Shown here: in pieces, positions 1 through 15,656 of the stretch | How the letters are laid out: every line of letters begins with the position of its first letter | Position numbering within the stretch: the first letter of the stretch is position 1 | Assembly (NCBI GenBank): GCA_965215605.1 | Contig: CBDCDX010000005.1 | Coordinates: 1 to 17,209, forward strand | From: an uncultured Candidatus Binatia bacterium | GTDB taxonomy: Bacteria; Desulfobacterota; Binatia; UBA9968; JAJDTQ01 | Length of the DNA stretch: 17,209 nucleotides | Reading direction: 5' to 3' | Program-made: the position numbers and the translations under genes | The notes under the pieces: model-generated | Databases searched by the model: none | What the model was told of the DNA's origin: nothing | What the model saw: the letters and a program-made list of their open reading frames with translations, nothing else

Positions 1-1
1 G

Positions 2-172
2 GGTGCCGTGGCCGGCCTGTCCCGGGACCACCTGGGCGCGTTCCTCGGCGGCCTCGCCGGCGCCCCGTCCGCCGTGATCCTGAGCGGAGTCTCGATGCTC
101 GCGGTGGTGGGGATCACCGCGGTCGCCAACCAGGGGGTGCGGGAGTTGAGGCCGGAAGGGCCGGCGGATTAG
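2..172 (+). CDS. 3' end of a probable MFS-type membrane transporter (partial)
   Basis: Open frame from the window edge: GAVAGLSRDHLGAFLGGLAGAPSAVILSGVSMLAVVGITAVANQGVRELRPEGPAD, TAG at 170-172. Hydrophobic Gly/Ala-rich helices ending in VREL resemble MFS C-termini; GC-rich third codon positions. Confidence 0.55.
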   Translation, partial: GAVAGLSRDHLGAFLGGLAGAPSAVILSGVSMLAVVGITAVANQGVRELRPEGPAD

Positions 173-287
173 AAGGCCCGTGAGGAGTTCCCCCGTAGCC
201 CAGGTATTTGCGCACTCCCATCTTGCCCCATCCCCAGTCTTCAGGCTCACCGCTCCTTGGAGTCCACGTCCTCCTTCAGACTCATTT

Positions 288-336
288 GTCTTTGGAAAGA
301 CTTTGACTCGAACAATGACTTAAAGTAAATTAAGTC
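288..336 (+). promoter_or_regulatory. Putative sigma70 promoter of the NHLP precursor with two palindromic operator-like sites
   Basis: TTGACT (303-308), 17 nt, TAAATT (326-331). Inverted repeats GTCTTT-GG-AAAGAC (288-301) and GACTTAA-AGTAAA-TTAAGTC (317-336, overlapping the -10). AT-rich patch in GC-rich context. Confidence 0.6.
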
Positions 337-404
337 CAATGGGCGTGGAAAACGGCAGGACGTAATGTCGCTATGGCGATGTTCAGAGAATAGGGGGAAC
401 AGAC

Positions 405-665
405 ATGAGCACACAATCACAAATCGAGGCGCAGGTACTTGCCAGGGCTGACGAGGACGGAGAATTCCGCACCCGGCTCCTGAATGACCCGAAGGCAGCC
501 ATCAAGGAGGCAACCGGGCTTTCGGTTCCGGACGGCATCAATATTCATGTCGTTGAAGACAACGCCACCGACTATCACCTCGTCCTGCCACCGGCGGGCC
601 GCAACCTGTCGGATGAGGAAATCAGGGGCGTTGCCGGCGGGATTGGTGACATCAACACTTGGTGA
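405..665 (+). CDS. NHLP-leader (nitrile hydratase-like/proteusin) RiPP precursor, core IGDINTW
   Basis: Leader motifs ARADEDGEFRTRLLNDPKAAI, IHVVED, YHLVLP and double-glycine site LSDEEIRGVAGG; core at 642-662; purine-rich RBS AGGGGGA upstream. Confidence 0.93.
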   Translation: MSTQSQIEAQVLARADEDGEFRTRLLNDPKAAIKEATGLSVPDGINIHVVEDNATDYHLVLPPAGRNLSDEEIRGVAGGIGDINTW

Positions 666-769
666 GTATTGTCGGGTCTCCGGCAGTGATCTGCTGATTT
701 TCTGCCGGAGCCATTCTTCCTGCCAAGCAATGCCGTCGTGCCAATGTTCAGAGAACAGGGCGAACGGAC

Positions 770-960
770 ATGAACTCACCGTCACAGATCTAGGCACAGG
801 CGCTTGCCAGGGCCGACGAGGACGGAGAATTCCGCACCCGGCTCTGAATGACCCGAAGGCAGCCATCAAGGACGCAACCGGGCTTTCGGTTCGGGACGGC
901 ATCGCCATCCATGTCCTTGAAGACAGCGGTGCCATTCCCGAATTGTCGCGACTGAGTTGA
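770..960 (+). pseudogene. Degenerate duplicate of the NHLP precursor
   Basis: Nucleotide near-copy of 405-~562 plus its upstream RBS region (atgttcagagaa). GAG->TAG stop at 791-793, 1-nt deletion near 844 (ctcctgaat -> ctctgaat). Similarity is lost after GAAGAC, so there is no GG motif or core. Confidence 0.88.
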
Positions 961-1383
961 ACCGGGCATTGCACGCGATACTCTGTCCATGCCGACCGGG
1001 TCCGACCGGCCTGGAGTCTGCACCATTTCCTTTCGGGTGAGTTGCCGTCTCTTCCAGCGGGACTTCCATCCGCCAGCGCTGCCGGTCATGGGTGCACGCC
1101 AATTTTGGGTCAGGCTGCGGCCATCCGTTGGGCCGCTGGTCATCCCTGATTTGTCGTCAGAGCCGAAATCGGCATTGACATGCTCCGGATGCCGAACTCG
1201 AGATCGGAATCGACATTTTGAGCATCACATGTGTCGGCATTATTCCCATGCTGCCCGGTCCCAGACTTCCGGGTCTGGTCGATGCCTCCTATGTCAGACT
1301 GCAGATTTTGTCCACACTGAACCGCCCTGTACCAGGTCCGGCAATGGCGCGAATGCGCCAACTCGACCGTCCAGAGGCAGGTT

Positions 1384-2898
1384 ATGCACAATAGGAAAAT
1401 CAGGAAACTCGTGATCGCCGGCGGTGGGACTGCCGGATGGATGGCTGCGGCAATGTTTGCCCGGCAGCTCCGCGAAACCCTGGACATTGCCCTGGTCGAA
1501 TCCGACGAGATCGGTACTGTCGGGGTGGGTGAAGCAACGATTCCACCGCTGCGACTTTTTCACGAATACATGGATGTCAGGGAGACTGATTTCCTGCGGG
1601 CTGTACAGGGCACCTTCAAGCTTGGAATTTCGTTCGAGAACTGGCGGGACCTGGGCGAAGACTACTTCCATTCCTTCGGGTGGGTCGGCAGGGAGCGCTG
1701 GACCGCCGGCTTTCAACATTACTGGCTGAGGGGCCATTTGCTGGGCCTGGCCCGGGATTATGGCGACTATTGTCCGGAAACAACGGCGTCGCTGCGCAAC
1801 CGCTTTGCAATCAGCCTGCACAACGTTCTGAACTACGCCTATCATATTGATGCCGGACTGTACGGACAATTCCTGCGAGGTATTGCCGAGGAGCTTGGCG
1901 TTGTCCGGCATGAAGGACGAATTGAGCAGGTGGAACAGGATCCGACCAGTGGATTCATAACCGGTCTGCGCCTGCAATCCGGGCAACTCGTCACCGGGGA
2001 CCTGTTCATCGACTGCACTGGCTTTCGCGGGCTCCTGATCGGGCAAACCCTCGACGTCGGCTTCGATGATTATGGCGACTGGTTGCCCTGTGACCGCGCA
2101 ATCGCGGTGCCAACCGAATCGTCGGGAGCCGCGCAACCATATACCCGCTCGATAGCCCATGAAGCGGGGTGGCAATGGCGCATTCCGCTGCAGCACCGGG
2201 TCGGGAACGGCATGGTGTTCTCCTCCCGGCACTGGTCCGACGACGAGGCAAGGGCGCGGCTGCTCGACAATGTGCAGGGTCGGGTGCTTGGAGAGCCGCG
2301 GCTGATCCGTTTCAGAGCCGGCCAGAGGCACAGGTACTGGCACAAGAACTGCGTTGCCATGGGACTGGCATCCGGTTTCATCGAACCGCTCGAATCGACC
2401 AGCATCCACCTCATTCAGCGTGGCATCACCCGCTTGGTCCAGATGTTCCCCGATAACGGAATTCGCGAAGCCGGGATCGCAGAGTTCAATTCCCACATGC
2501 AGCTTGAAATCGACAATATCCGGGATTTCATCATCCTGCACTACCATGTGACCAACCGCTCGGATACGCCGTTCTGGCGGCAGTGCCGGACCATGAACAT
2601 TCCCGACTCCCTCGAACACCGGATCAAGTTGTTTCGTCAAACGGGCCGGATAGCGTGGAACCAGGCGGAACTATTCGGCACCACGTCATGGGCACAGGTC
2701 ATGCTGGGTCAGGGTCTGATTCCGGAACAGTATCACCCGATTGCCAATGCGATGAGCGACGAGGAACTGGGGCAATATCTGGCCGACATCCACGAAAATG
2801 TCGACAAGCAGGTGAACGAGTTTCCGGACCACCAGCAATTCATTGACGATTACTGCAAGGCACAACCGCCCGAATTCCAGGACCTGCCGACGTCATGA
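1384..2898 (+). CDS. Flavin-dependent halogenase, tryptophan halogenase (PrnA/RebH) family
   Basis: 504 aa. FAD motif GGGTAGW, GVGEATIP, catalytic Lys context QGTFKLGISFENW, FIDCTGF, WQWRIP (WxWxIP), FIEPLESTSI. Confidence 0.96.
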   Translation: MHNRKIRKLVIAGGGTAGWMAAAMFARQLRETLDIALVESDEIGTVGVGEATIPPLRLFHEYMDVRETDFLRAVQGTFKLGISFENWRDLGEDYFHSFGWVGRERWTAGFQHYWLRGHLLGLARDYGDYCPETTASLRNRFAISLHNVLNYAYHIDAGLYGQFLRGIAEELGVVRHEGRIEQVEQDPTSGFITGLRLQSGQLVTGDLFIDCTGFRGLLIGQTLDVGFDDYGDWLPCDRAIAVPTESSGAAQPYTRSIAHEAGWQWRIPLQHRVGNGMVFSSRHWSDDEARARLLDNVQGRVLGEPRLIRFRAGQRHRYWHKNCVAMGLASGFIEPLESTSIHLIQRGITRLVQMFPDNGIREAGIAEFNSHMQLEIDNIRDFIILHYHVTNRSDTPFWRQCRTMNIPDSLEHRIKLFRQTGRIAWNQAELFGTTSWAQVMLGQGLIPEQYHPIANAMSDEELGQYLADIHENVDKQVNEFPDHQQFIDDYCKAQPPEFQDLPTS

Positions 2899-3881
2899 TG
2901 TGGCAGCGGGATTTGCCGCCGGATTGGCCTTGCGCCAGACAGTTTGACAGGGCCAGTGCCATGAGAACGCTGCCATTGTTTCCCAATACGCCGTTTGTTG
3001 TTTCGGAAAGTGCCTTCGTGAATCCGAGATACCGGGGGTTCCGGCTGCCATGCCACGGTGATGGGGCCGATCATTCGGAGATGCTCGTTGTCAAGCCGAT
3101 CCGCGTTCACGATGCGCGCGCCCTCGAACCGGCCGCCACCATCGGGCGCATGGGGTTCGAGCTGGTGCATGCGCCGATCGATATCGATTACGGCAATCAG
3201 GACGATGTCGTTTCCCGGTTCTACGACCAGTGCGCGGAGCTGGTCATGGCGGCAACCGGATGCCTTTGTGCACGGACCATGCAGCACGAGTTTCGCACCG
3301 GTGTGCCAATTTCGCCCAACGGCGCCGGAACCTATGCGGAGACGCCCCACTCGGATCTGACTCCCTATGTCGAGGATGTGCTCGACATACCTGATGGCCA
3401 TCACTTCGGCGTCTACACTGTCTGGCGCAGCATAGACCCCCTGCAGGCAATCGAGTCAAAACCCCTTGCCTTGTGCGACCATTCGACCATCTCGGCCGAT
3501 GACATGATCAGTTCCGATGGATGGCGCCTGACTGAGCCGGGCACCCGCGTGGTATTGTACCGCCTTGTTCATGACATGGCCCAGAGCTGGCATTACTTTC
3601 CACGAATGGAGCCGAACGAGGCGATGATCTTCAGGCAATACGATTCCCGCATCAAGGATCTGGCCTCCCGGGTCACCTTTCACACCGCCTTCAACGATCC
3701 GACGACACGGGAGGATGCGCCAAGGCGGCGTTCTGTCGAAGCCCGCGTGGTCGCGGTCTTTGCCGAAGAAGATCCGACAGGCCGAAAATCAAGATACCAA
3801 GCCGAAATTCCAACGATGTATCCGGATGGCAGAACGTCATCCTGGCGCCACGAGAAGATGCTTGACTGGGGCGTGGATTGA
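2895..3881 (+). CDS. CmcJ/NvfI-family Fe(II)/2-oxoglutarate-dependent oxygenase
   Basis: Motifs GFELV, HSD (HxD), VWRSI...PLALCD, WHYFPRMEPNEAMIFRQYDS, FHTAFNDP (distal His), RRSVEAR. ATGA overlap with the halogenase stop; alternative start ATG at 2961. Confidence 0.8.
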   Translation: MMWQRDLPPDWPCARQFDRASAMRTLPLFPNTPFVVSESAFVNPRYRGFRLPCHGDGADHSEMLVVKPIRVHDARALEPAATIGRMGFELVHAPIDIDYGNQDDVVSRFYDQCAELVMAATGCLCARTMQHEFRTGVPISPNGAGTYAETPHSDLTPYVEDVLDIPDGHHFGVYTVWRSIDPLQAIESKPLALCDHSTISADDMISSDGWRLTEPGTRVVLYRLVHDMAQSWHYFPRMEPNEAMIFRQYDSRIKDLASRVTFHTAFNDPTTREDAPRRRSVEARVVAVFAEEDPTGRKSRYQAEIPTMYPDGRTSSWRHEKMLDWGVD

Positions 3882-4173
3882 ACGGAACCTCTGCCGCGTC
3901 GTCTGCGAAGGCTGTGGCGGCGTGATCTACACGCGGGTAGGGCGAGGGAACGGCGCCGGCATCTCTGCGGCCGGCGCCTACGAGGTCGGCGCCCGTTGAG
4001 ACAGTAGATCGCACGCCGGTCAAACGCACGGCAAGGAGAGGCAACGGGAAGCTTGTATGCTCGACCTCAAGGCACCCTTTGCTGGGCTACGCGTACCCCA
4101 GGGGCGCCTGTTTCAGTCCCCCGGACAATCCACAGTTCATCGCAACGGCCGGTGGTGCGATGGTTGCGGGCGC

Positions 4174-4799
4174 TTACACGGACAAGCCAAAAAACCAGTC
4201 CCGTCTGAGTGGAATGAAGTTATCGACGGCTCTTCCAAGCTCGTACCCGGAGGCGGGAGAAGCCGCGAATACCCTTTTGCCCGATTTCTTGACGGTTTCG
4301 ACTGCTGGTACGAAATCCCCATCTGCCGAGAGAAGATACGCTACATCGTATTGTCCGTCGTGCGCCATTGTAACCATGTCTACGGCGATTGAAACATCGA
4401 CCCGCTTCTCGGTGTACTGAGGGACGGACATTTTGCACAAGGCTTCAAGTTCGACGAGAATTGACCCACGGAGATCGGACTTATGGGCTGCGACTACGTC
4501 CTTTAGCCTCCCGATCAATGGATTGTCGTTCGGGGGACCATCCTGCGCTCGATTCGGCCCTTGAAAACCTCTACGCCTTGGCTCTGGATCCTGTTCAGAA
4601 ACTTTTGTTGAGATGAGCGCCGGGAGAGATTGCCGGAAACCTGTCCGACATAGTATCGGATACCGGCCAGTTGCCGATTCATAACGAGTTTCTCGGCCAA
4701 TTTCTGATAGTCGAGTTCTCCCGTGGCGATCCCGATGTTCTTGGCGGCATGGTAAAAGTTGCTTCCGTCGATGAAGAGGACCGCGCGTTCTGGTGCCAT
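4174..4799 (-). pseudogene. NYN-domain (LabA/DUF88, PIN-like) RNase split by a 1-nt frameshift
   Basis: N-half 4515-4799 has FIDGSNFY and IRYY. C-half 4174-4518 has EKRVDVSIAVDM, LLSADGDFVPAV and GKRV. One extra base in the G5 run at 4532-4536 joins them as MVPPNDNPLIGRLK, so this may be a sequencing error. Confidence 0.88.
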
Positions 4800-4808
4800 A
4801 AGGAACTC

Positions 4809-4853
4809 AAAAAAAACCCCCGGGGGCCGTTTCCGGCTCGATCCCGGGGGGGG
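4809..4853 (-). terminator. GC-rich intrinsic terminator hairpin in the 5' leader of the NYN gene
   Basis: Minus strand: CCCCCGGG-ATCGA-GCCG-GAAA-CGGC-C-CCCGGGGG followed by T8, ending 9 nt before the NYN ATG. Confidence 0.8.
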
Positions 4854-4873
4854 TTAGCAAGCTAGTCGGGCGG

Positions 4874-4902
4874 ATTTTACCTTTGCCGCCACCGCATGTC
4901 AA
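4874..4902 (-). promoter_or_regulatory. Near-consensus sigma70 promoter for the leader RNA/NYN gene
   Basis: Minus strand TTGACA (4902-4897), 17 nt, TAAAAT (4879-4874). Confidence 0.85.
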
Positions 4903-5013
4903 GCGGCTTGCCTGAGACGGCTTTTCTTTGCTCGCCGTTCAGCCGCTTGGACGTGTCTGTCCGAAACACCGCCCCTCAGCTTCCGCCAATCCGCGCTCGC
5001 GCTCCTTCTCTGG

Positions 5014-5331
5014 TCATGCGATCCCTGGACCGACACCCTTTCCTGGAACGCTCGCCTTGGTCGGCAGATGACGTATCTCGGCGCCGGTCTCCCTGTCGGC
5101 CTGCACCAAGTCGTACTGGGTCTGAAGGTTGAGCCAGAACTGAGGGTCGCTGCCGAACCAGTGACCTAAGCGTAACGCGGTGTCGCCCGTGACCGAACGC
5201 TTGCCGGCGACAATCTGGCTAACCCGGTTTGGGGGGACGTCGATCTGCCGCGCGAATTCCGTCGGAGTGATCCCCAACTCTTCCAACTCGCCTTTCAAGA
5301 CCTCGCCGGGATGGACAGCTCTCATGAACAT
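5014..5331 (-). CDS. higA: HigA-family antitoxin (XRE HTH), orphan
   Basis: VHPGEVL...VPPNRVSQIVAGKRSVTGDTALRLGHWFGSDPQFWLNLQTQYDL; strong RBS AAGGAGGAGG. Confidence 0.92.
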   Translation of the reverse strand: MFMRAVHPGEVLKGELEELGITPTEFARQIDVPPNRVSQIVAGKRSVTGDTALRLGHWFGSDPQFWLNLQTQYDLVQADRETGAEIRHLPTKASVPGKGVGPGIA

Positions 5332-5719
5332 GCGGTCCTCCTCCTTGTCATCGGTGGTAGTCTGGTCTTACCCGGTCCCGGGCCTTGCTTTACCAATCCT
5401 TCACTGGAAGGTACGCTGCATGCTGCTCATCAACAACCAGGAAGTCGAAGAGCAGACCGACATAAAGGTTCGTCTCAAGGCGCGCTGGAGATGGATTTTG
5501 GGGACTTCGCGCACAACGACGCCGTTTGCCGGCCCCGGCCGTGGGTGTGGCTACCGTGCGAGCGGCCGGATGACCATCAACGTTGGACACCATGGAGCCA
5601 GCCATACCATCGGCTCGTTCGCCATCCGCATGAAGTCGGACTTGGTCCATTGGGCTCGGCGACATCGAGGAGGAGTATTGCATGGAGCCTGGCCACTGAG
5701 GCGGGCTCATCAGCCATTC

Positions 5720-5747
5720 TTGACAGTCGCGGGCGGCGGCTTACACT
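5720..5747 (+). promoter_or_regulatory. Putative sigma70 promoter of hicAB
   Basis: TTGACA (5720-5725), 16 nt, TACACT (5742-5747), 8 nt upstream of the hicA ATG. Confidence 0.65.
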
Positions 5748-5755
5748 AGGAGTAG

Positions 5756-5968
5756 ATGAACGGGCGGCAGTTCATCACCAGGGTCCGCCAATGGGCAAGG
5801 GCCCGGAATTTGGAGATTCGCTTCGTGGTGTCGGAAGGGCCGGGATCGCACGGAACGCTCTACGCGGGAGATCGGAAGACGAGCGTCAAGGATCGAAAGA
5901 AGGAGATCGGCAAGGGACTGCTCGCCAAGATGCTTGCCGACCTCGGGATCGACAGGGACGAATTCTAG
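5756..5968 (+). CDS. hicA: HicA-family mRNA interferase toxin
   Basis: 70 aa basic protein with GPGSH motif and C-terminal EIGKGLLAKMLADLGI; directly upstream of a HicB-like gene. Confidence 0.85.
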   Translation: MNGRQFITRVRQWARARNLEIRFVVSEGPGSHGTLYAGDRKTSVKDRKKEIGKGLLAKMLADLGIDRDEF

Positions 5969-6010
5969 TGGGTGAGTACTGGAGCTGCCCGAATCTGGAG
6001 AACTGAGCCG

Positions 6011-6448
6011 ATGTCTGACACATACAACTATCCCGCCGAGATCGAGCGCGACCAGGACGGCCGTTATGTCGTCGCGTTTCCGGATTTCGGGTGGGGCGCA
6101 ACGGACGGCGCGACTCGCGACGAGGCGCTGGTCGAAGCCCGTGACCTGCTTCGAGAGTTGATCGCGGCTACGATGCGTGAGGGTAGGGACCTGCCGAAGC
6201 CATCGCGCGCGACTAGGCGTCGGCCGATTGTTGTTCCCCCGGTGCCGATTGCGCTGAAGGCGGCCCTCTACGAGGCGTTCCGTAAGGCTGGCATGTCGCA
6301 AAGCCGTCTCGCCCACGACCTCAATGTTGCCGAGAGCGAGGTGCGGCGCATGCTGAATCCGGATCATGTCACGAAGGCAGCCACCATCGACCGCGCATTG
6401 CGCCGGTTGGGGAAGCGTGTGAGCGTGACAGTCGGCGAGGCCGCGTGA
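6011..6448 (+). CDS. hicB: HicB-family antitoxin with C-terminal HTH
   Basis: YPAEIERDQDGRYVVAFPDF...TDGATRDEALVEARDLL...GRDLPKPS, then HTH MSQSRLAHDLNVAESEVRRMLNP. ATG 6011 preferred over 5972. Confidence 0.92.
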   Translation: MSDTYNYPAEIERDQDGRYVVAFPDFGWGATDGATRDEALVEARDLLRELIAATMREGRDLPKPSRATRRRPIVVPPVPIALKAALYEAFRKAGMSQSRLAHDLNVAESEVRRMLNPDHVTKAATIDRALRRLGKRVSVTVGEAA

Positions 6449-6620
6449 TCTGCTTTCGGTGATCTCACCCGCTGTGGTTGTCCGCAAGAAATTGGGGATT
6501 CGTGCATATCAGGTCATCTTGTGTTCTGTTGATGAATACGGTGTCTGGCCCGTCAATAATCCAAAAGGGGACTTGAAATCGAACTTTATGACTGATGCTA
6601 TCCCATCCGCTCTACACCCC

Positions 6621-7180
6621 CACCTAGTGTCGTGTCTGGTTAATCGGCGCTATGTGATTCCACCGACCCAGACAAGATCAAGCGCCCCTCCGTCGCGCGT
6701 ATGCTGCGAAATACTCCGGCACTCCGAGCCAGACTCGAGTCGGCCAAAAGTAAGTCTGACGGAAAAGTGCAGTTTGCGGTTGGAGGCCACCGGATTGCGA
6801 AAGTCATGCTCAAGCTTGCAAGAGGCCACGCGGCTTTTGAGCTTAGCTTGCCGTGCCGGAGTGAACCAGACCATTTTTGGTGTGTTCCAGTTTCTGAGCT
6901 GTCCAGTGACGCGCGTGATGCATTTAATGCGACACATGTTCGGAGGGTATTCGGTGAAGTTGGGTCTCGTGGGTTGCAGCGAATGCTCGTAACCCATGTT
7001 GCTCTGCAATCAGAATCGGGCGAACAATCCGAACTGCGGTTGCTTGTGACGGACTGGATCCATGTTCAGCAGGACCTGTACCGGTACCTTGCCGTCGACG
7101 ATGTCGGTGTGCTCGTGATCAGAATCGTCGTGGCCGAGTACCTTGCTTACGAAGTTGCGTGGCACCTGGGCACGGCCTAA
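6621..7180 (+). pseudogene. 5'-truncated, frameshifted gene; C-terminal part resembles an HNH-endonuclease-associated family
   Basis: The ORF 6701-7180 frame extends upstream as SALCDSTDPDKIKRPSVARMLRNTP and joins HLVSCLV across a 1-nt gap near 6641. KLARGHAAFELS, GEVGSRGLQR and IVVAEYLA.EVAW match my recollection of proteins with an N-terminal HNH domain, which is absent here. Confidence 0.5.
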
Positions 7181-7297
7181 CCACGCGATGATGTCGGGCC
7201 GCTGCTCTCCCGGACCGCCAAAGGCTAATTTGCGGTTTGCACCACACTGGTGTACCTAGACGTAAAATAGGCGGGCGTCCCCTGCTAGGTTGCCCAA

Positions 7298-7484
7298 GTG
7301 GCAACGGTGCAGCAAGGGAAACGGGCGGCTGACAAGGGCACCGTTCGAAAGTGGTTAGCGGCAGCCGCGCGCGAGCAACATCGTAGAGAGCGTGGCCCAG
7401 GAAAGCCGCGTCTTCGTAGCCTGGCTGGTTCGCGACGCTGTCTCGCTTTACATTTAGGACCGTTGACCTATGCTTGGGCCCTAA
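7298..7484 (+). pseudogene. Decayed ribbon-helix-helix (CopG-like) regulator
   Basis: Across frameshifts reads ...GTVR...REQH..ESVAQESRVSVAWLVRDAVSLYI*DR*PMLGP*, with in-frame TAG (7455) and TGA (7464); ends 9 nt before vsr. Confidence 0.6.
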
Positions 7485-7493
7485 TTCCAGACC

Positions 7494-7916
7494 ATGGACA
7501 CCGTCCCCGCCGAACGCCGATCGGAAATCATGTCGCGCGTCCGCAGTCGCGACACGCGCCCCGAGATGACCGTCCGCCGACAAGTCCACCGGCTTGGCTA
7601 TCGATACCGCCTTCACGGCAAGCGCCTGCCGGGACGGCCGGATCTCGTGTTCGCGAGCCGTCGTAGCGTCATCTTCGTCCATGGCTGCTTTTGGCACCGA
7701 CATCCGGGCTGCGGCCTCGCACGAACACCCAAATCCCGGGTCGTGTTTTGGCGCACGAAGCTCGACCGGAATCGTGAGCGCGATCTTGGCAACCAAGGGG
7801 AACTTCGTCGCATGGGCTGGCATTTTCTGGTGGTATGGGAGTGCGAGTTGCATGACCTCGAATCCGTCACGAAGCGGGTCGTGTGCTTCCTTGAGGATCG
7901 CCGTGAAGTCGGTTGA
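7494..7916 (+). CDS. vsr: Very-short-patch repair endonuclease
   Basis: MDTVPAERRSEIMSRVRSRDTRPE, LPGRPDLVF, IFVHGCFWHRH, FW..KLDRNRERD, GWHFLVVWECEL. Confidence 0.97.
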   Translation: MDTVPAERRSEIMSRVRSRDTRPEMTVRRQVHRLGYRYRLHGKRLPGRPDLVFASRRSVIFVHGCFWHRHPGCGLARTPKSRVVFWRTKLDRNRERDLGNQGELRRMGWHFLVVWECELHDLESVTKRVVCFLEDRREVG

Positions 7917-9144
7917 ACTGTTCGCCGGGGCGGGAGGGCTGGCGATGGGCGTCGCACGGGCGGGTTTCCAACATCTTGGGATCGTCGAGGCCGATCAATG
8001 GTGTTGCGAAACCATCAACCACAACCGCCTGCGGCGGGTTTCACCCGTCGCCGATTGGCCCACCGTTACGCCCACGGACGTCAAGAAGTGCGGGTTCGAC
8101 GGGTTTCCGAGCGACATCGCCCTCGTTTCCGGCGGCCCTCCCTGTCAGCCGTTCTCGCTAGGCGGCAAGCACCGCGGCCACGCCGACGCCAGGAATCTGT
8201 TCCCCGACCTTGTTCGAGCGGTACGGGTTCTCCGCCCTCGCGCGGTCATTGTCGAGAACGTGAAGGGCCTGCTACGAAAGTCCTTTGACCCCTACTTCAA
8301 GTACATACTTCTCACGTTGACCTACCCCACATTGGTGCAACGCGCCGGCGAGGACTGGCGCGCTCACATGGCCCGCCTCGAACGGCACCACACGTCGGGC
8401 GGCGAGTTGGAGTACCGAGTCGACTTCGACGTCCTGAACGCTGCCGACCACGGTGTTCCTCAGCACCGCGAACGCGTGTTTATCGTCGCGTTCCGCGCCG
8501 ACCTGGGCGTCCAATGGTCGTTTCACGATGATCTTCCCAGCACCCACAGTCCGGATAGGTTGCTTTGGGATCAATGGGTCACCGGGGAATACTGGGATCG
8601 GCACCGGATTCCCTCTACCAAACGACCCCCCGCACCTTCGCCACGTTACGCGCGTTTGAAGGCTCTTTCGTGTTCCCTTAATCCACCGCGCAGCGAACCT
8701 TGGGTGACGGTCCGGGATGCGATTTCCGACCTTCCAGACTCGGGCTCGGAAGAGGCCCGCACCGTTCTCAACCATCGTTTCAACTCCGGTGCCAGGAGCT
8801 ATCCCGGGCATACCGGCAGTCCATGGGACCGACCCGCGAAAACGCTCAAGGCTGGCGACCATGGAGTTCCAGGCGGTGAGAACACCCTTCGGCATCCGAA
8901 CGGCCGCGTCCGATATTTCACCGTCAGGGAAGCGGCTCGCCTGCAGACCTTCCCGGATCGCTTCGAGTTTCACGGCTCTTGGACTGAGACCATGAGGCAA
9001 CTTGGGAACGCCGTGCCCGTCCAACTCTCTTTCAATGTCGCCGAGAGCGTGGCGGCGGCGTTGCGGCGGGTTGGATCACGCCCGCCGGACATACTAGGGA
9101 GGGCAACCAAGTCTCACAAGTCAGCGAGGAAGTCCATGGCCTAA
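7903..9144 (+). CDS. DNA (cytosine-5) methyltransferase
   Basis: GTG start at 7903 with GAGGA RBS, overlapping the vsr end. Motifs ELFAGAGG (I), GGPPCQPFS (IV), ENVKGL (VI), PQHRERVFIV (VIII), REAARLQTFPD (IX), QLGNAVP (X). Confidence 0.96.
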   Translation: MKSVELFAGAGGLAMGVARAGFQHLGIVEADQWCCETINHNRLRRVSPVADWPTVTPTDVKKCGFDGFPSDIALVSGGPPCQPFSLGGKHRGHADARNLFPDLVRAVRVLRPRAVIVENVKGLLRKSFDPYFKYILLTLTYPTLVQRAGEDWRAHMARLERHHTSGGELEYRVDFDVLNAADHGVPQHRERVFIVAFRADLGVQWSFHDDLPSTHSPDRLLWDQWVTGEYWDRHRIPSTKRPPAPSPRYARLKALSCSLNPPRSEPWVTVRDAISDLPDSGSEEARTVLNHRFNSGARSYPGHTGSPWDRPAKTLKAGDHGVPGGENTLRHPNGRVRYFTVREAARLQTFPDRFEFHGSWTETMRQLGNAVPVQLSFNVAESVAAALRRVGSRPPDILGRATKSHKSARKSMA

Positions 9145-9201
9145 CGTCCATTTTCTAACCCCAGGTCAGAAAAACAATCTTACAGTTTTGGAGCCTCACT
9201 C

Positions 9202-11517
9202 ATGGCAACTAACGAACTGGACCTCACCCCCGACCCGAGGATCCTGAAGATGCTGGGCGAGATCGACCTCCACCAGTGGCGGTGTTTCGCCGAACTCATC
9301 GACAACTCCATTGACGGGTTCCTTCACGCGACTCGCGCCGGTGATCCGATAGAGCACGCCGAGATCGCCGTCACCATCCCGACGGCCGACGCCGACACGG
9401 TGCGAGTCGTGGTTAAAGACAACGGACCCGGGATGTCAATTGAGACGCTCGAAAACGCGGTCAAGGCGGGATGGTCCGGCAATGACCCGCTGAGTAACCT
9501 CGGGTTGTTCGGGATGGGCTTCAACATCGCAACAGCTCGTCTTGGTCTCGTGACCGAGGTTAGGACCACTCGCGCGGGCGACCCCGAGTATGTGGGTGTC
9601 CGCATAGACTTGGACGAGCTGCGAGCGACTCGGAATTTCAGGGTTCCGCGGCGGACCCTCCCGAAGCCAGACCACGCCGATCACGGTACCGAGATTGTCA
9701 TTTCGCGCTTGAAGCCCGACCAGCGTAGGTATCTTTCGCGTTCGAACAACCGCACGACGATCCGCAAACACCTGGCGCGGACGTATTCTTCGCTGCTCGT
9801 CGATTCGGTTGCCGGCGGGATCAAGCTCACTCTCAATGGCACTCGTGTCTCGCCGCGACGCCACTGCGTGTGGGACGGGTCGCGTTCCGTCGAATTGCCG
9901 GACAGAACCAAGGTCGAGGCGGTTCAGTGTATCAACGTGCCGCTCGCGCCTCGACGCTATTGCACTTATTGCATGCGCACACTGACGAACAACGAAGAGA
10001 CCTGCCCCACCGCGAGTTCAAGCTGCAATGTCGAGGAGGCCTCGAGGCAAATAACGGGCTGGGTCGGGATCCAAAGATACCTGCACAACACGGAGTTCGG
10101 GATCGACTTCGTTCGAAACGGTCGCAAGATCGAAATCGCAAACAAGGATTTGTTCGTTTGGAGCGATGGTGACACCGCGGAGGTCGAGTACCCCATCGAC
10201 GACCCACGCAACCGCGGCCGCTTTGTCGGCGAGATACATATCGATCATTGCAGAGTCAGCTATACCAAGGATCGGTTTGAGCGCGATGATCCGTCATGGA
10301 GCGAAATGGTCCGGGTGGTTCGGGGAGATGGGCCTCTTCGTCCAGTCGTGGCAGGTCAACGCGGCTACGAGGGCAATGAAAGTCCCCTGTTCCAACTCTT
10401 TCAGGCCTTTCGGCGGTCCAGCCCGCAGGGCAAGAACGGCTTGTGGTCAAGGGTTTTGGTGGTCAAGGACAACGATCGCGCGCAACAAATGGCCGACGCT
10501 TTCGCGAACGAAGACCCCGAATACTTGACCGACCAGCGATGGTGGGATCTCATCGAGGAACAGGACAAGGAGCTCCTCCGCGACACTGACCCGGGCGCTC
10601 CATCCGTGATTCCGGGCGGTTTCCTGGATGACCCCGACGACGAACCCGGAGGCGGCGAAACCGACCCACCGGAACCTCCACCCCCACCGCCGCATCCTCC
10701 CCGGCGCGCATTGCACGAGCTGACCAGGAAGTACGTGCACCCGACGTTTCGCGTCGAGTACGACATCCAGGCGTTCGCGGTTCAACGCAACGATTCTGAG
10801 TTGGTCGCGGGCGTGCCATGGGTGTTTCAACTGGACGATGTGGCCACGCGGACCTACGCGTTATTGGTGGACTTGGAGAACGAGGTGTTTCGCTCGACCA
10901 CCATGACGCCACTCGACGGCTTGTTGGCGGAACTCGCTCATAGGACTGTTGACTTTCTCAAAGGACAAGCCCAGGACGTTACCCTCGCGGGCGTGCTCGC
11001 GGACTTTCGCAAACAGTACTGTGTCGACACGCGCCTTGACCCCCAGGAGATCATCGCGTTCGCGACCGCAGTGCTGGACGAGATCGGTCGCGCCATACCC
11101 GACCTCCTCGCACCGGGACAAGGTGTCGAGCTTTACGCCGAACTCACGGAGGCCGAGAGGAACGCCGTCGCGCAACGAATGGCCAACCGAAACGTGGGAA
11201 ACCCCAATGAGACCATAGCCGACGGACGCTTCTGGGCATACGCCGAGTTCCAGTCCCTGAGAGGGCTATTCACGCGTCATCCCGAGCTGTTTCTCGATGG
11301 AAAGTACTGGGAGGACGCCTACGAGACGCTAGACTACGGGACCCCCCGGGTCACCGCCGATGCGAGAGTGAGTGTGGTCTCGCGATACGACGCGTATCTG
11401 GGCGACGCCGTCTGGATCGCAAATCAGACACCAGCGGATCTCGAAAGTACGAGCCGTGACACCATCATTCGCGCAACTTGTTCCCTGCGGCTATTGGGAT
11501 CCGACGTGGCCGGCTAA
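9202..11517 (+). CDS. GHKL (MORC/MutL-like, HATPase_c_3) ATPase with large C-terminal region
   Basis: 771 aa. AELIDNSIDG, DNGPGM, LGLFGMGF, HGTEIVI; S5-like GIDFVRNGRKI...GRFVGEIHID; CxxC...C...C insert; acidic/Pro-rich linker. Confidence 0.9.
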   Translation: MATNELDLTPDPRILKMLGEIDLHQWRCFAELIDNSIDGFLHATRAGDPIEHAEIAVTIPTADADTVRVVVKDNGPGMSIETLENAVKAGWSGNDPLSNLGLFGMGFNIATARLGLVTEVRTTRAGDPEYVGVRIDLDELRATRNFRVPRRTLPKPDHADHGTEIVISRLKPDQRRYLSRSNNRTTIRKHLARTYSSLLVDSVAGGIKLTLNGTRVSPRRHCVWDGSRSVELPDRTKVEAVQCINVPLAPRRYCTYCMRTLTNNEETCPTASSSCNVEEASRQITGWVGIQRYLHNTEFGIDFVRNGRKIEIANKDLFVWSDGDTAEVEYPIDDPRNRGRFVGEIHIDHCRVSYTKDRFERDDPSWSEMVRVVRGDGPLRPVVAGQRGYEGNESPLFQLFQAFRRSSPQGKNGLWSRVLVVKDNDRAQQMADAFANEDPEYLTDQRWWDLIEEQDKELLRDTDPGAPSVIPGGFLDDPDDEPGGGETDPPEPPPPPPHPPRRALHELTRKYVHPTFRVEYDIQAFAVQRNDSELVAGVPWVFQLDDVATRTYALLVDLENEVFRSTTMTPLDGLLAELAHRTVDFLKGQAQDVTLAGVLADFRKQYCVDTRLDPQEIIAFATAVLDEIGRAIPDLLAPGQGVELYAELTEAERNAVAQRMANRNVGNPNETIADGRFWAYAEFQSLRGLFTRHPELFLDGKYWEDAYETLDYGTPRVTADARVSVVSRYDAYLGDAVWIANQTPADLESTSRDTIIRATCSLRLLGSDVAG

Positions 11518-13192
11518 ATGCGGGAGCCCTTCCTCGATACGCGTCGACTTCTGAGAGGTCCTTGGCAAGCGTTCGAACGCGACGTCGCACGCCTCCTCGT
11601 TTACAACGGTTTTGACGACGTCCGCGTTGTGGGCGGTGCCGGCGACCGGGGAGCCGATGTCCTCGGCGTCAAGAAGGGCGAGCTTTGGGTCATCCAGTGC
11701 AAGTACACATCGTGCGGCTACCCGCCTCCTTCAGCCGTTAACGAGGTCGGGGAGGCCGCCCGATTCTACGGAGCCGATCGGATCTTCGTGGCATCGTCCC
11801 GACCTATCGGCCCCGGCACTCGAGACGCGATACAACGCTGGCGCGCCCTGGGAATGAAGATTGAAACCTTACAACCCAACACCCTTTTGGATATTGTGGC
11901 ACGCAGCCCCGAATATCCTCCGTGCCGCCGCGATCTCAGAGACTATCAGGAGGACGCGGTGGCCAATTTCGTGGCTGCACTCCGAGAGACTGGACGCGGT
12001 CAAGTCGTCCTGGCCACGGGTCTTGGCAAGACGGTGGTCCTCGCGGAAGCGGTGGCGCAGCTATTCCGTGACGAAGCCGTCCGTCACGGTCGAGCGCTTG
12101 TGCTCGCCGGCACGAGAGAGCTCGTCGACCAACTGCACCGTGCCTTTTGGGACCAGATCCCGAAATGGATAGCAACCCACGGTTTGATCGGCGGCGAGAC
12201 GCCGTCCCACTGGGATGGTATTACCTTCGCCACCGTGCAAAGCGTGGCTTCGCGCATCGACGAGCTTCCCGAATTCGGAGTTGTTCTCATAGATGAGGCG
12301 CACCACGTAGGCTCGGAAACGTTCAGACGTGTCACTGACCATCTATCCAGCGCAATGATTGGTGGAGTCACCGCCACCCCGTGGCGCGGTGATCGCTACG
12401 ACATCGACTATCTCCTAGGCCCGCCCGTGATTAGGATAGGCATTGCTGAGGGACTTCGACGGGGTTTCCTCTGCGAGGCCGACTACCGCATGCTGGTCGA
12501 CAATATAGACTGGGAGTTGGTCAGGTCCCGCTCGCGCAACAGCTATTCCATCTCCCAGTTGAATACACTGCTGCTCCTCCCGACTCGGGACGAAGAGGCG
12601 GCCAAAACAGTCCGAGAGACCTTCGATACCGATAAACGCCGCGCGGCCATCGCCTTTTGCTCGTCCATCACACATGCGAAGAGCTTCGCCGCCACGTTAC
12701 GCCTTTTCGGTTTTCGGGCCCGATCGATCACCAGCGACATGGAGGCAAGAGAGCGTGATCAAACCATGGCTTCCTTTCGAAGGGGTACGTTGGAGGTCGT
12801 GACGACGCGCGATTTGTTCAATGAGGGCGTCGACGTTCCCGACGTTGACATGATTGTGTTTATGCGGGTTACACATAGTCGGCGGATTTTTGTGCAACAA
12901 CTCGGTCGGGGACTCCGAGTGACTCCCAGAAAGGACAAGGTGATTGTGCTGGACTTTGTCAGTGATCTCCGACGCATCGCGGAGGTGATAGAGCTGGAAA
13001 AAGCGTCCCGCAGCGACATTGAGAGGCTCCGTATTCCAGGAATCATACAGTTCCGAGACGAGGGCGCTGGCAGCTTTATGCTTGACTGGATGCGAGATCA
13101 AGCAGATCTATTCAACCGTGAGGGGGACCCGCATCTCGAACTTCCCGTCTTCGGGGTACCGCCGCCGGAGCAACAAGGGTTCGATGCAATGA
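11518..13192 (+). CDS. Mrr-like restriction endonuclease fused to SF2 (ResIII/DEAH) helicase
   Basis: N-terminal WQAFERDVARLL...GDRGADV...IQCKY. Helicase motifs LATGLGKT, IDEAHH, GVTATP, LFNEGVDVP, QQLGRGLR. TAAATG coupling to the ATPase gene. The ORF track runs to 13569, but the real end is probably TGA 13190-13192 after a 1-nt indel near 13178. Confidence 0.9.
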
Positions 13193-13786
13193 TGCGTCTC
13201 GGTGAATGCTGTCGCGACGAGATTAAGACTCGACTCTGGGCCACGGCGGGGCACCCTCGGTACTGGTCAACGTTGTCGGACTTCCTGCGGTTCGCCGCGA
13301 ACTACTATGGGGTCTGGACACGCGACTCGGGCATTGCCGGCCAACTTGGCCGAGCTTCATGGATCCAAGGGCAAGGTACGAGCGGCCGATCAAGGCTACA
13401 CCCGCAACAAGCTTCTTCGAACGGCCGCGGAGTGTCGCTTCAACGACGAAGATCTCAACGAGCAGGCGTCTTTTGTGGCTCCGAGAGAACAGGACCAACG
13501 TGCAGCCGGCTACGGCAAACCACATGGTCGAGCGGTCCGGTCGGATCGCTTTGCAGAATCGTATGCTGAGCAACAGAGCGCTGCTGCCCTTGGCGAGTTG
13601 ATCCGTACATGACGGCATTTGAACGCCAGGCTCACGCCCAACCGGGACCCGAGCGCCCCCTGCTCCGTTCACCCTGGAGGTCGAGCGCCGCCCGCTGAGC
13701 GTCTATGCGGAGCACCGGTGTCAGCTTGTCAGGGCCGAGGCAGGCAAGCGCTTGGCGAATTCAGAAACTCGGCATGGCGGGAGTAA
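13189..13786 (+). pseudogene. Multiply frameshifted hypothetical gene coupled to the helicase
   Basis: Protein-like blocks in alternating frames: RDEIKTRLWATA, WSTLSD, YYGVWTRDSGIAGQLG, FMDPR, YGKPHGR, MTAFER, AWRE* (TAA 13784-13786). ATGA overlap at 13189-13192. Confidence 0.55.
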
Positions 13787-13813
13787 TGCCTCGGTGAGAC
13801 CTCAAGAGATATC

Positions 13814-14205
13814 ATGACATGTTATGAGTGGATTCCCTGAAGAGGCTTCAGATACATGGGATACGGCGTCATATTCGTTCCGGACGCCAACATCCTACTC
13901 CACCGACTGCGTCATTCTGGACACCAACGTGCGTGAACAGCTGCTACCACTCGGCAAGGCGCTGTCTAAACGACTCGACTTGGACTTCTCCTATCAAGTT
14001 TGGCGTCGTTGATCCATCGAAACCTCCAGGATGTCGAGGGCCGGCGATCTCGAGACGCTTCCGATCCGTGTCACCGACCTGCTGCACGGCCGTATTTGAG
14101 CAAACTTTTTTTCCCACGCGCTGCACGGTCCGCGCGACAATACCCTCATTCACCCGGAGCGGGAACTCGCGACACGCGGGTGGTGGTGACCCGTTGATTT
14201 TCAGG
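13814..14205 (+). pseudogene. Degenerate PIN-like domain gene
   Basis: Frameshifted blocks in the expected order: EEASDTWD, IFVPDANILLH, VREQLL...LSKRL, YQVGV..HRNLQDV, DLLHGRI, GDPLIF. This resembles the D(A/T)N.LL...HQV..E..RN...GD.IIW pattern of PIN-like proteins. Confidence 0.5.
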
Positions 14206-14234
14206 CCCGCATGCAAGCTTTTCTGAATGCATGC

Positions 14235-15030
14235 ATGGGCGCATCGACTACAAGGCCCCGGTGCTCATCGCAGGCCGATGACCGGCAGCTCGCAGGAGGT
14301 GGTGCGGCAGGCTGGAGAACCCAAGGGGGTCGAGCCGTTGGCGCCGCGAAGCCTGACTTGAGGTCCAGGTCGCCGGGGACGCATCGACTACAAGGCCGTC
14401 GGCTCCCGGCTGATCGCAAGCCGATGACCATGTGAGCAGATCGAGCGATGTGGTGGCAGTTCCTGGGCGGGTACGAGCGCACGGGTACGACCATCGGTCA
14501 ACGCCAAGTTCGTGCCCCGGATCGCTTCGTACGTGCGCAATCTCGACCCAACGACGGGTTTGCTCCAGGTCGGAGCCCAAAGGACGTGGCGCCGCTCCTG
14601 GGCCCGGTGGTCTACGGCCTCGGCGGCACCGAGCCCACGGTGTGCGACGCCGAGGTGGCCCTGGGGTATCTGAAGCTGGACTATTTTCTGGGCGGCCATC
14701 TCTCTCTGGACAAGGCGCCATGGCCGCTATCGGGGGGGGCGGATCGCCAAGCCTTGGGCATGAGCGTGACGGACGCCGCAGGAGGGATCTTCCGTGCTAT
14801 ACACGCCCACATGAACGATCTCATCCGCCACGGTTGAGCGCGGGCACGATCCACGGGAGTTCACCATGGTGGCCATGGGTGGTTCCACGCACACGGCGCG
14901 CTGTGCGCTCCAGCTCGGCGTGCACAAGGGGGTGGTCCCTGTGACGGCATCGGTCCACGCGGCCACCGGCCTGATCTCCGCGGACGTGACCTACGAGTAC
15001 GGCATGTCCGACCATGTGGTGGCGCCGCGG
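14235..15030 (+). pseudogene. Hydantoinase A/oxoprolinase-family fragment
   Basis: GPVVYGLGGTEPTVCDAEVALGYL..DYFLGG.LSLD, LGMSVTDAAGGIF, FTMVAMGG, VVPVTASVHAATGLISADV; several frameshifts, both ends missing. Confidence 0.8.
14241..14429 (+). repeat. Imperfect direct repeat with exact 17-nt core GCATCGACTACAAGGCC
   Basis: Core at 14241-14257 and 14381-14397, each followed shortly by ATCGCA(G/A)GCCGATGACC. Confidence 0.75.
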
Positions 15031-15654: not shown

Positions 15655-15656
15655 GT

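Follow-up and report, generated by a model that had tools for sequence, protein, structure and literature searches.

A probable reduced copy of a sponge-associated RiPP operon, with an NHLP precursor, a halogenase and a CmcJ/NvfI-type oxygenase, in a Candidatus Binatia bacterium

Do an NHLP precursor gene, a flavin-dependent halogenase gene and a CmcJ/NvfI-type oxygenase gene standing side by side form a complete RiPP cluster, and does the oxygenase act on the peptide? This question is raised by a stretch of 17,209 nt (the window) from an uncultured Candidatus Binatia bacterium (GCA_965215605.1, contig CBDCDX010000005.1), in which an earlier note had described three co-oriented genes as a minimal halogenated-RiPP cluster. 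All three genes were confirmed, each with an intact reading frame (Table 1); the gene calls rest on an ORF list and protein family searches. We consider it fairly probable that a RiPP operon which has spread horizontally among sponge-associated bacteria is present here in reduced but intact form, with maturation by the two enzymes encoded here and export in trans.

Table 1. Features of the module in the window (C1, chromosome of the same assembly; L022 and L024, related loci).
Feature	Position	Strand	Basis and remarks
Sigma-70-like promoter match TTGACT-17-TAAATT	303-331	+	upstream of precursor; weak
NHLP-leader RiPP precursor, 86 aa	405-665	+	TIGR03793 profile match; alignment of 30 precursors
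Stem-loop, possible attenuator/terminator	677-711	+	just past precursor stop; weak evidence
Decayed tandem copy of precursor gene and its upstream region	~744-928	+	alignment; 88% to C1:237695-237511
Flavin-dependent halogenase, 504 aa, probably Xcc4156/BrvH type	1384-2898	+	PF04820 629 bits; motifs; solved relatives
Deletion scar	2899-2960	+	alignments with canonical loci; L022/L024 matches
CmcJ/NvfI-family Fe(II)/2-oxoglutarate oxygenase, 306 aa from M23	2961-3881	+	NF041278; ORF also open from 2895

The precursor matched TIGR03793 with 76.3 bits (cut-off 50.9), its residues 3-79 covering model positions 1-77 of 77. Since the model ends at G79 of VAGG, the leader comprises residues 1-79 and the core left over is IGDINTW (nt 642-662), which bears out the seven-residue core with a C-terminal Trp after GG that had been read from the sequence; its unmodified mass, given before as about 817.4 Da, was recomputed as 817.40 Da from standard residue masses. 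The core has no Cys, and the precursor combines an NHLP leader with a C-terminal Trp on a short core (5-7 residues), as described for substrates of SrpI. Four promoter-like sites were found versus 1.1 expected, so the match upstream of the precursor is weak evidence; the homology block common with the chromosomal copy starts at 303, the same position as this match. The stem-loop had an MFE of -27.9 kcal/mol (z -2.72; 2/200 shuffles fold as well), and a terminator-like site was predicted within it at 681-696. The decayed second precursor, which was overlooked in the earlier note, has an ATG at 770, an in-frame TAG at 791-793 and a 1-bp deletion, and its C-terminal part and core are lost.

In the halogenase, the PF04820 match was accompanied by a GxGxxG motif (GGGTAG at 13-18), the catalytic Lys (K79), a WxWxIP motif (WQWRIP at 263-268) and the conserved Glu in EPLES (334-338), and K79, WxWxIP and EPLES are also present in Xcc4156 and BrvH. 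Among 30 solved matches Xcc4156 (6y1w, 632 bits) ranked first and BrvH (6frl, 481 bits) third, both near full length, and MibH (5uao, 194 bits), which served as the search hook in the discovery of SrpI according to a passage of PMC12615548, was the weakest. In the tree, the halogenases beside these clusters grouped in a single clade with a support of 99, to the exclusion of 28 general homologues, and the window enzyme, unlike Xcc4156 and BrvH, belongs to this subclade adjoining NHLP precursors. To our knowledge, neither Xcc4156 nor BrvH has a genetic link to a peptide. Judged indirectly, via solved relatives and the halogenase tree, the window halogenase is probably of Xcc4156/BrvH type and not of SrpI type. 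Another halogenase, on chromosome C1, has K84, Y102, P105, S109 and Y110, which agree in residue number with those given for SrpI in a passage of PMC10286304.

The oxygenase ORF (2895-3881) matched the NF041278 CmcJ/NvfI model with 155 bits (cut-off 80); the Pfam copy searched gave no match for it, and its homologues bear the precomputed label PF27522. H152, D154, H263, R278 and R284 were invariant in 30 oxygenase sequences and reached 100% in the RiPP-linked clade and its sister clade; as assigned from NvfI, the His/Asp/His/Arg set would make up the 2-His-1-carboxylate iron triad and the 2OG-binding Arg. The AF2 model (pLDDT 87.9; residues 1-25 below 50) has a double-stranded beta-helix fold like that of NvfI, and Foldseek retrieved NvfI (E 1.6e-20, TM 0.62-0.78) and CTB9 (E 2.3e-17), both of which are small-molecule tailoring enzyme entries. 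NvfI (7de2), CTB9 (7eus) and CmcJ share the family HMM and the HxD...H triad plus Arg with the window enzyme, but it is only 23-25% identical to known members, and unlike them it has a clade-specific N-terminal segment (residues 24-68), predicted to be a leader-binding surface, and a ribosomal peptide as its genomic partner in place of a terpenoid, polyketide or beta-lactam pathway. CmcJ acts on a small molecule, by C-alpha hydroxylation on an N-acylated carbon. The statement that no CmcJ/NvfI-family enzyme was known as a RiPP maturase held in the literature searched, a limited collection: we found no paper tying such enzymes to RiPPs, no CmcJ-type maturase described among the matches listed for NHLP/proteusin with 2-oxoglutarate enzymes, only fungal terpenoid work for NvfI with a precursor peptide, and no paper treating BrvH together with SrpI.

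The window was compared with 79 related loci, which are not independent, as some lie on one contig or are near-duplicates (L036/L051, L063/L067, L056/L057, L058/L059, L032/L033). The canonical operon begins with one to three NHLP precursors, followed in some loci by a halogenase; then come an NHLM C39-peptidase ABC exporter, a second ABC exporter and finally the CmcJ-like oxygenase, with two to three tandem precursors in canonical loci. In L024-L031, for example, the NHLP precursor lies at about 1-2 kb and the halogenase at 2-3 kb, followed by PCAT (4.9 kb), ABC2 (7.0 kb) and CmcJ (9.9 kb). Most members of the related group of 48 loci have these exporters (PCAT 41/48, ABC2 41/48, NHLP precursor 35/48, both 32/48, halogenase 17/48). 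As the earlier note had stated, the window's other ORFs yielded no peptidase, exporter or flavin reductase, and next to the window precursor the NHLM C39-peptidase/ABC exporters are represented only by a relic. Indeed, the sequence between the halogenase and oxygenase genes consists of 2899-2923, found 3' of the halogenase stop in canonical loci, 2924-2947, which is the last seven codons (LALRQTV) and TGA of the NHLM ABC2 exporter gene (a 24-nt relic), and 2948-2960, the conserved spacer preceding the oxygenase ATG. L022 9991-10067 matches L024 3479-3557, and L022 10069-10130 matches L024 9949-10010. The alignments indicate that a deletion of about 6.4 kb took both exporters out of the window copy, and that the layout of this copy, taken before as a minimal architecture, is a deletion derivative of the five-gene operon and not a designed minimal cluster. 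The ATGA overlap reported for the two enzyme genes is present at 2895-2898 but is probably not the gene junction, since in the alignment of 30 homologues the start is M23 (nt 2961), the probable true start, and the intervening stretch is the scar. We therefore regard as highly improbable a self-contained cluster with translationally coupled enzyme genes served by generic peptidases and exporters of the host: the reading frame does extend from the ATGA, and the two enzyme genes of the chromosomal copy do overlap, stop with start, as ATGATG, but 2899-2960 is a recognisable non-coding or foreign-frame relic, the residues before and just after M23 (1-25) are predicted to be disordered, and dedicated NHLM exporters stand in most related loci.

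Chromosome C1 of the same assembly carries a copy of the whole module, 94-97% identical to the window, which the earlier note had overlooked. Beside this copy lie another precursor (core SWSALW), another CmcJ-like gene and two intact exporters forming a pair; these exporters are full-length matches just under the NCBIfam equivalog cut-offs (849.7 versus 853.3 and 665.1 versus 709.4), and no HlyD-type NHLM partner was above cut-off anywhere in the assembly. Because an NHLM-type C39 exporter pair lies on the chromosome beside so similar a module, cleavage and export in trans are plausible. The window contig is closer to the chromosome of a named relative (97-99% identity) than to that of its own assembly (94-97%), so it may belong to a co-assembled strain, and the in-trans exporter would then sit in a different cell line. 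The assembly has a single YcaO (C1:495332-496348), near a separate NHLP with the core LCCCGI, and neither a CmcJ-family match nor a halogenase was found near this srp-like locus.

Could the window copy be a decaying remnant that lost its exporter-peptidase, yields no mature product and consists of three recently orphaned ORFs? The deleted exporter genes with their scar, the second precursor as a pseudogene, a junction that is still eroding (a further 66-nt loss in the C1 copy, and about 88 nt fewer in the window than in L022) and the placement on a contig of 17 kb, next to a variable defence island, would fit such decay, to which we nevertheless give a small chance: all three ORFs are intact with their catalytic residues in place, the reduced module is kept at two genomic places and in the named relative, and the assembly encodes a compatible pair of exporters, with leaders that are very similar between the two precursor copies. 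Moreover, the three genes are under purifying selection, with dN/dS between the window and the C1, L024 and L022 copies of 0.13-0.20 for the halogenase, 0.16-0.42 for the oxygenase and 0.19-0.34 for the precursor, where counts are small and the precursor has too few changes against L022 for a ratio.

The CmcJ-like oxygenases linked to RiPPs formed a clade with SH-aLRT 97 that comprises 51 tree rows, 47 of which have an NHLP precursor or an exporter within 10 kb. In the sister clade such context was present in 0/33 rows, the neighbours being sulfatase, GFO/ThuA and MFS genes and no RiPP genes. All precursor tails (43/43, 28 distinct) end in W (31) or Y (12), and this C-terminal aromatic residue is the sole invariant feature of the cores. 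The RiPP-linked clade spans many phyla, and its hosts, judged from record titles, are sponge-associated. A correlation between halogenase presence and a Trp core was dropped, because most halogenase-free loci are Trp-cored as well as the 16/16 halogenase loci with a visible precursor, and because the loci are not independent.

Further, the complex of the oxygenase (residues 23-328) with the precursor was predicted with a score of 0.62 (best control 0.00) and passed; this mark was reached by 116/157 solved complexes and 2/215 mismatched pairs, counts that hold only roughly because the alignments were self-made. The runs shared at least 56% of contacts, with a partner pLDDT of at least 78. Contacts were predicted on precursor residues 3-11, 39-47, 60-68 and 72-76, and the confident ones are on the leader only, with none on the core. 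Together with the genomic context, the complex prediction supports the proposal that a CmcJ/NvfI enzyme serves as a RiPP maturase.

Alternatively, both enzymes may act off the peptide, the oxygenase on a small molecule and the halogenase on free indole or a small aromatic, with the NHLP linkage reflecting co-transfer or, for example, immunity. NvfI, CTB9 and CmcJ are all small-molecule tailoring enzymes, and the surroundings of the sister clade also point this way. In passages of PMC7336383 and PMC7754283, Xcc4156 and BrvH brominate free indole in vitro, tryptophan is not accepted by BrvH and the native substrates are given as unknown, yet the crystallographers of Xcc4156 themselves suggest a peptide substrate in a passage of PMC7336383. 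We think this alternative improbable in view of the invariably aromatic tails, the complex prediction with its controls at 0.00 and the proximity to NHLP precursors or NHLM exporters across many phyla, often with the oxygenase as the only non-transport enzyme of the locus.

The family resembles several known systems in part. PoyI of polytheonamide biosynthesis is an Fe/2OG hydroxylase acting on a proteusin; the window oxygenase is likewise an Fe/2OG enzyme with an NHLP-type precursor, but of a different lineage by NCBIfam assignment, PoyI being likened by description. The srp clusters (SrpE precursor, SrpC YcaO, SrpI brominase), whose gene content is taken here from passages of later papers, share with the window the NHLP precursor, the short Trp-ending core, the adjoining flavin-dependent halogenase and, going by record titles, sponge-symbiont hosts; in contrast, the window has no YcaO and no core Cys, and the conserved enzyme of its family is the CmcJ-like oxygenase, so the claim of an NHLP-type RiPP locus distinct from published srp stands. 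According to passages of PMC10286304 and PMC12615548, SrpI needs a C-terminal Trp on a core of 5-7 residues behind an NHLP leader, and in passages of PMC10858898 and PMC11791876 it needs a Pro-rich stretch and L(X)4L in the leader, for which the window equivalent is LVLPPAGRNLSDEEI, with L68-x4-I73 where the consensus of 30 aligned precursors has L68-x4-L73. The NHLM export system (TIGR03796/TIGR03797) with NHLP precursors goes back to Haft et al. 2010, as cited in a passage of PMC12426817; canonical relatives and the C1 copy carry both exporters, whereas the window has lost both.

For the reduced but intact operon copy that we favour, we infer every chemical step and the trans-acting export as follows. 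A deletion of about 6.4 kb in the window lineage would have removed both exporters and joined the halogenase gene to the oxygenase gene. The 86-aa precursor would be made from its own promoter, and the CmcJ-like oxygenase would bind the NHLP leader in its C-terminal part (LVLPPAGRNLSDEEI) and oxidise the short core, the target being most likely the invariant aromatic residue at the C-terminus or a position adjacent to it. The Xcc4156/BrvH-type halogenase would halogenate the core Trp, bromination being likely by analogy, and cleavage after GG and export of the modified heptapeptide would fall to an NHLM C39 exporter whose gene lies elsewhere in the genome.

The analysis suggests, for the first time in the literature searched, a link of a CmcJ/NvfI-type oxygenase to such peptides. 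Beyond this, we put forward with low confidence, as a proposal more likely wrong than right, that CmcJ-like enzymes mark a new class of RiPPs, widely transferred, in sponge symbionts. In this class an Fe/2OG oxygenase that binds the leader would remodel the obligatory Trp/Tyr at the C-terminus of a 5-9 residue core, and an Xcc4156/BrvH-type halogenase would act on a ribosomal peptide. Possible reactions of the oxygenase are C-alpha hydroxylation or a decarboxylative desaturation that would leave a (bromo)indolyl or phenol enamide at the C-terminus. Halocyamines and celenamides are marine-invertebrate peptides with bromo-dehydrotryptamine or styrylamine ends, which the products would resemble. 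A second, unrelated lineage of leader-guided Trp halogenases would be useful, since such enzymes already serve peptide and protein labelling (a passage of PMC10286304). Should the CmcJ-like enzyme prove to mature peptides, RiPP biosynthesis would be extended by an enzyme family, and probably a C-terminal chemistry, new to it, a compact cluster of precursor, exporter and oxygenase common to many phyla titled as sponge-associated groups would be defined, and the leader-bearing Trp peptide would be a concrete candidate substrate for the Xcc4156/BrvH halogenase branch.

The three co-oriented genes claimed for this contig (C6) in the earlier note, encoding an NHLP precursor, a flavin-dependent halogenase and a CmcJ/NvfI-family oxygenase, were all recovered with family matches above the cited cut-offs, and the proposed heptapeptide core after a GG site agreed with the end of the TIGR03793 model. 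C6, which the window spans in full (17,209 bp), is one of 8 contigs and has a GC content of 0.605 versus 0.659 for the 3.96-Mb main contig, C1. The oxygenase had no match in our local copy of Pfam; its AlphaFold2 model from a 30-homologue alignment (mean pLDDT 87.9) retrieved NvfI (E 1.6e-20) and CTB9 (E 2.3e-17) in Foldseek, and H152, D154, H263, R278 and R284 were invariant among the aligned homologues.

Features of the window and of contig C1 (unprefixed positions are those of the window)
Feature	Position	Strand	Detail
Promoter-like site	303-331		weak evidence
NHLP precursor, 86 aa	405-665	plus	TIGR03793, 76.3 bits (cut-off 50.9); model stops at VAGG, core IGDINTW, 817.40 Da unmodified
Stem-loop 3' of precursor	677-711		weak evidence
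Decayed tandem precursor copy and its upstream region	~744-928		ATG 770, TAG 791-793, 1-bp deletion, C-terminal part gone
Flavin-dependent halogenase, 504 aa	1384-2898	plus	PF04820, 629 bits; GGGTAG, K79, WQWRIP, EPLES present
CmcJ/NvfI-family oxygenase	2895-3881 (ORF)	plus	homologues' start M23 = nt 2961; NCBIfam match, 155 bits (cut-off 80)
Deletion scar, part 1	2899-2923		matches sequence 3' of halogenase stop in canonical relatives
Deletion scar, part 2	2924-2947		matches final seven codons (LALRQTV) and stop of the ABC exporter gene 5' of the oxygenase in canonical relatives
Deletion scar, part 3	2948-2960		conserved spacer
94-aa ORF	4515-4799	minus	N-terminal part of NYN domain only (profile positions 1-64 of 145)
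Defence/mobile island	7594-13569 and 15657-17126		most of remaining contig
C1 array: Hal2, divergent halogenase, 424 aa	C1:244670-245944 (= L020:18670-19944)	plus	
C1 array: NHLP precursor			core SWSALW
C1 array: NHLM C39 exporter			TIGR03796, full-length, 849.7 bits, just below cut-off 853.3
C1 array: second exporter			TIGR03797, 665.1, below cut-off 709.4
C1 array: second CmcJ-like gene			57% identical to window's oxygenase
C1 array: module copy			precursor (core IGDIHTW), halogenase, CmcJ-like gene, in that order
C1 srp-like locus: NHLP precursor	C1:488001-488264		ends SAGLCCCGI (core LCCCGI); ABC transporter just upstream
C1 srp-like locus: only YcaO of assembly	C1:495332-496348		~7 kb from LCCCGI precursor
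Outgroup CmcJ/NvfI-family paralogues	C1:324471-325262, C1:3119114-3119902, C1:3337172-3337942		NF041278, 295-308 bits; unlinked to NHLP genes

The ATGA at 2895, earlier read as the point where halogenase and oxygenase join, is probably not the gene junction: homologues of the oxygenase begin at M23 in the alignment, and residues 1-25 have pLDDT <50 in the model. The 62 nt between the halogenase stop and M23 (2899-2960) are, judged by comparison with relatives carrying the canonical five-gene operon, a deletion scar. In L022, a related MAG chromosome, the junction fuses the equivalents of ~3557 and ~9949 of the comparison locus L024. The ~6.4 kb lost contained the C39-peptidase exporter, the greater part of the second one and a fragment of an IS. 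The window junction has lost roughly 88 nt more than that of L022, and the C1 copy a further 66 nt, so that its oxygenase ATG overlaps the halogenase stop. A minimal architecture was thereby contradicted, and the module is a deletion product with an exporter relic at its junction.

The module region of the window (303-3877) was 94-97% identical to C1:234586-237771 (minus strand), which forms the end of a larger array whose exporter pair indicates that a dedicated peptidase-exporter is present in the assembly; cleavage and export in trans, as formerly proposed, would thus be right in kind, with the genes on C1. Window 1-6506 was collinear with L022 at 97-99% identity, and the upstream flank of L022 corresponded to C1:3134891-3141915 (92-97% identity). 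C6 is therefore nearer to L022 than to C1 of its own assembly, for which contamination was estimated at 5.74%. Instead of a second copy carried by one cell, C6 may represent a variant from a co-assembled strain. The L022 record also carries the SWSALW/exporter cluster (L044), at a distance of some tens of kb from the module; on C1 the two abut, so the module occupies different positions in close relatives. Window 6507-17209 had no counterpart in the 21-kb L022 stretch compared, L022 being otherwise collinear. The island there encodes a C5 cytosine methyltransferase that scores 406.7 bits on PADLOC MTase_II, a GHKL-ATPase protein of 771 aa that PADLOC did not match, an mREase_IV-like fusion of Mrr nuclease and helicase, and a Fic protein that matches PDC-S24 at 619.7 bits. 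The 94-aa NYN ORF is probably a gene fragment.

Comparison of the window genes with the C1, L024 and L022 copies gave dN/dS of 0.13-0.20 for the halogenase, 0.16-0.42 for the oxygenase and 0.19-0.34 for the precursor, the last from small counts and with too few changes for a ratio against L022. A remnant is a live alternative, since the exporters have been lost, the second precursor has decayed and the junction is eroding, but the intact ORFs and the dN/dS values, small counts included, favour a window copy that is functional and maintained.

An oxygenase profile search of a species-representative genome collection yielded 250 confirmed stretches, and the best 79 loci were retained; by record title these 79 were MAGs of many phyla, including Binatia, several Alphaproteobacteria, Gammaproteobacteria, Nitrospirales and Poribacteria, and a number of these names belong to sponge symbionts. 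All six-frame ORFs of the loci were scanned with C1 proteins in BLASTP and with an HMM, iterated once, that was seeded with the precursors of the assembly itself. This revealed a recurrent order of precursor(s), optional halogenase, C39-peptidase exporter (PCAT), second exporter (ABC2) and CmcJ-like oxygenase, flanked by housekeeping genes or transposases and with no further enzyme. In the related group of 48 loci (L022-L067, L069, L093), PCAT was present in 41, ABC2 in 41, a precursor (E < 1e-30) in 35, precursor plus exporter in 32, window-type halogenase in 17 and Hal2 in 1. Four loci had neither precursor, exporters nor halogenases (L038, L043, L049 and L063); L043 and L049 begin at a contig end, and L063 and L067 are overlapping stretches of a single chromosome. 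The loci are partly non-independent (L036/L051 and L063/L067 on shared contigs; L056/57, L058/59 and L032/33 near-duplicates). Tandem CmcJ-like gene pairs were seen 3' of the exporters in L048 (9124, 10052) and L050 (9042, 9932), from Nitrospirales/Nitrospira, with cores AVPTGDW and AVPTSGGW.

In a maximum-likelihood oxygenase tree, rooted with three canonical C1 paralogues, the RiPP-linked clade held 51 rows (SH-aLRT 97; RiPP context in 47, none in 4), and its sister clade 33 rows (support 87; RiPP context in 0), one example locus of which had sulfatase, GFO/IDH, ThuA and MFS genes as neighbours. Copies 89-94% identical to the window's oxygenase occurred in records titled Binatia, Rhodospirillales and Poriferihabitaceae, and no homologue was found at E 1e-30 in 30 relatives searched, 18 of the same genus, which together point to horizontal spread.

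All 43 precursor matches (28 distinct tails) ended in an aromatic residue (Trp 31, Tyr 12), the cores following a GG, AG or GS site with a length of 5-9 residues (IGDI[NHD]TW, FGHGGFAW, TNNYGPWGW, SWSALW, [FWI]APT..SY, FAPGGDSW, AVPTGDW, YAPSNGNW, FGQGW), and no other core position was conserved among the 43. Tyr-ending cores grouped with one oxygenase subclade. Because a universal oxygenase accompanies a universal terminal aromatic residue, we infer that the oxygenase acts at this residue. In L058, L059 and L061, a window-type halogenase (67% identical) lay at ~10.6-11.2 kb, and the cores WAPTSSSY and WAPTSDSY begin with Trp and end with Tyr; in these clusters the halogenation target may be the non-terminal Trp.

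The complex of oxygenase residues 23-328 with the precursor, each with a 30-row alignment, was predicted with a score of 0.62 (best of 3 controls, 0.00), a mark reached by 116/157 solved complexes and 2/215 mismatched pairs, counts that are rough because custom alignments were used. Contact agreement between runs was at least 56% and partner pLDDT at least 78. Confident contacts covered precursor residues 3-11, 39-47, 60-68 and 72-76, including LVLPPAGRNL and the start of an L(X)4L-like segment, and oxygenase residues 24-34, 40, 60-68, 198 and 226-229; no core residue was among them. We know of no solved complex of such a kind, so that a pass through memorisation by the predictor is unlikely; the prediction supports, short of showing, binding of the precursor by the oxygenase. 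The predicted contacts include the region bound by SrpI, the brominase of the srp clusters, which maps to a Pro-rich stretch and L(X)4L of the leader (PMC10858898, PMC11791876).

The best solved relatives of the window halogenase were 6y1w (Xcc4156, 632 bits), 9luq and 6frl (BrvH), and MibH (5uao) was the weakest of 30 solved matches (194 bits). Xcc4156, from Xanthomonas campestris, is a brominating halogenase, and the paper on it repeats the idea that a peptide may be the substrate of enzymes of this sort (PMC7336383); BrvH prefers bromide, does not accept free tryptophan and has an unknown native substrate (PMC7754283); SrpI was mined with MibH as hook (PMC12615548), its similarity network comprising 124 sequences (PMC11791876). 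Thousands of homologues of the window halogenase exist at 66-71% identity; in a tree, a single clade with a support of 99 united 18 cluster-linked halogenases with 6 database proteins and excluded the 28 general homologues sampled, which suggests one recruitment into this RiPP family.

Hal2, which lacks the canonical WxWxIP motif and adjoins the SWSALW precursor, carries K84, Y102, P105, S109 and Y110, an unexpected and exact match to the published SrpI numbering; in SrpI these are the catalytic Lys, self-brominated Tyr residues and part of a leader-contact loop (PMC10286304). Hal2 may accordingly be the SrpI-like enzyme of this genome, and the window halogenase a second, independent lineage. 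The assembly's only YcaO lies at a separate srp-like locus on C1 with no halogenase or CmcJ-like gene. The precursor there has the core LCCCGI without terminal Trp, whereas the published SrpE core is LCCCW, and the missing halogenase fits this absence. The open frames around two sub-threshold NHLP-leader matches, at C1:3418576-3418974 (241 aa) and C1:3804605-3804994 (344 aa), are long, and instead of RiPP precursors they probably encode genuine alpha subunits of nitrile hydratase or proteins related to these.

The RiPP-locus interpretation as a whole thus stands in kind for a CmcJ-type maturase, trans export and a non-srp type, and fails for the architecture; all chemistry ascribed to the locus is putative. 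Our literature search, whose scope did not take in the founding srp description and its supplements, found no paper on an NHLP/exporter/CmcJ-like cluster. The broader finding, beyond the window's reduced copy, is that many phyla share a compact cluster in which an NHLP precursor is combined with exporters and a CmcJ-like oxygenase, a halogenase of the Xcc4156/BrvH type being an optional addition.
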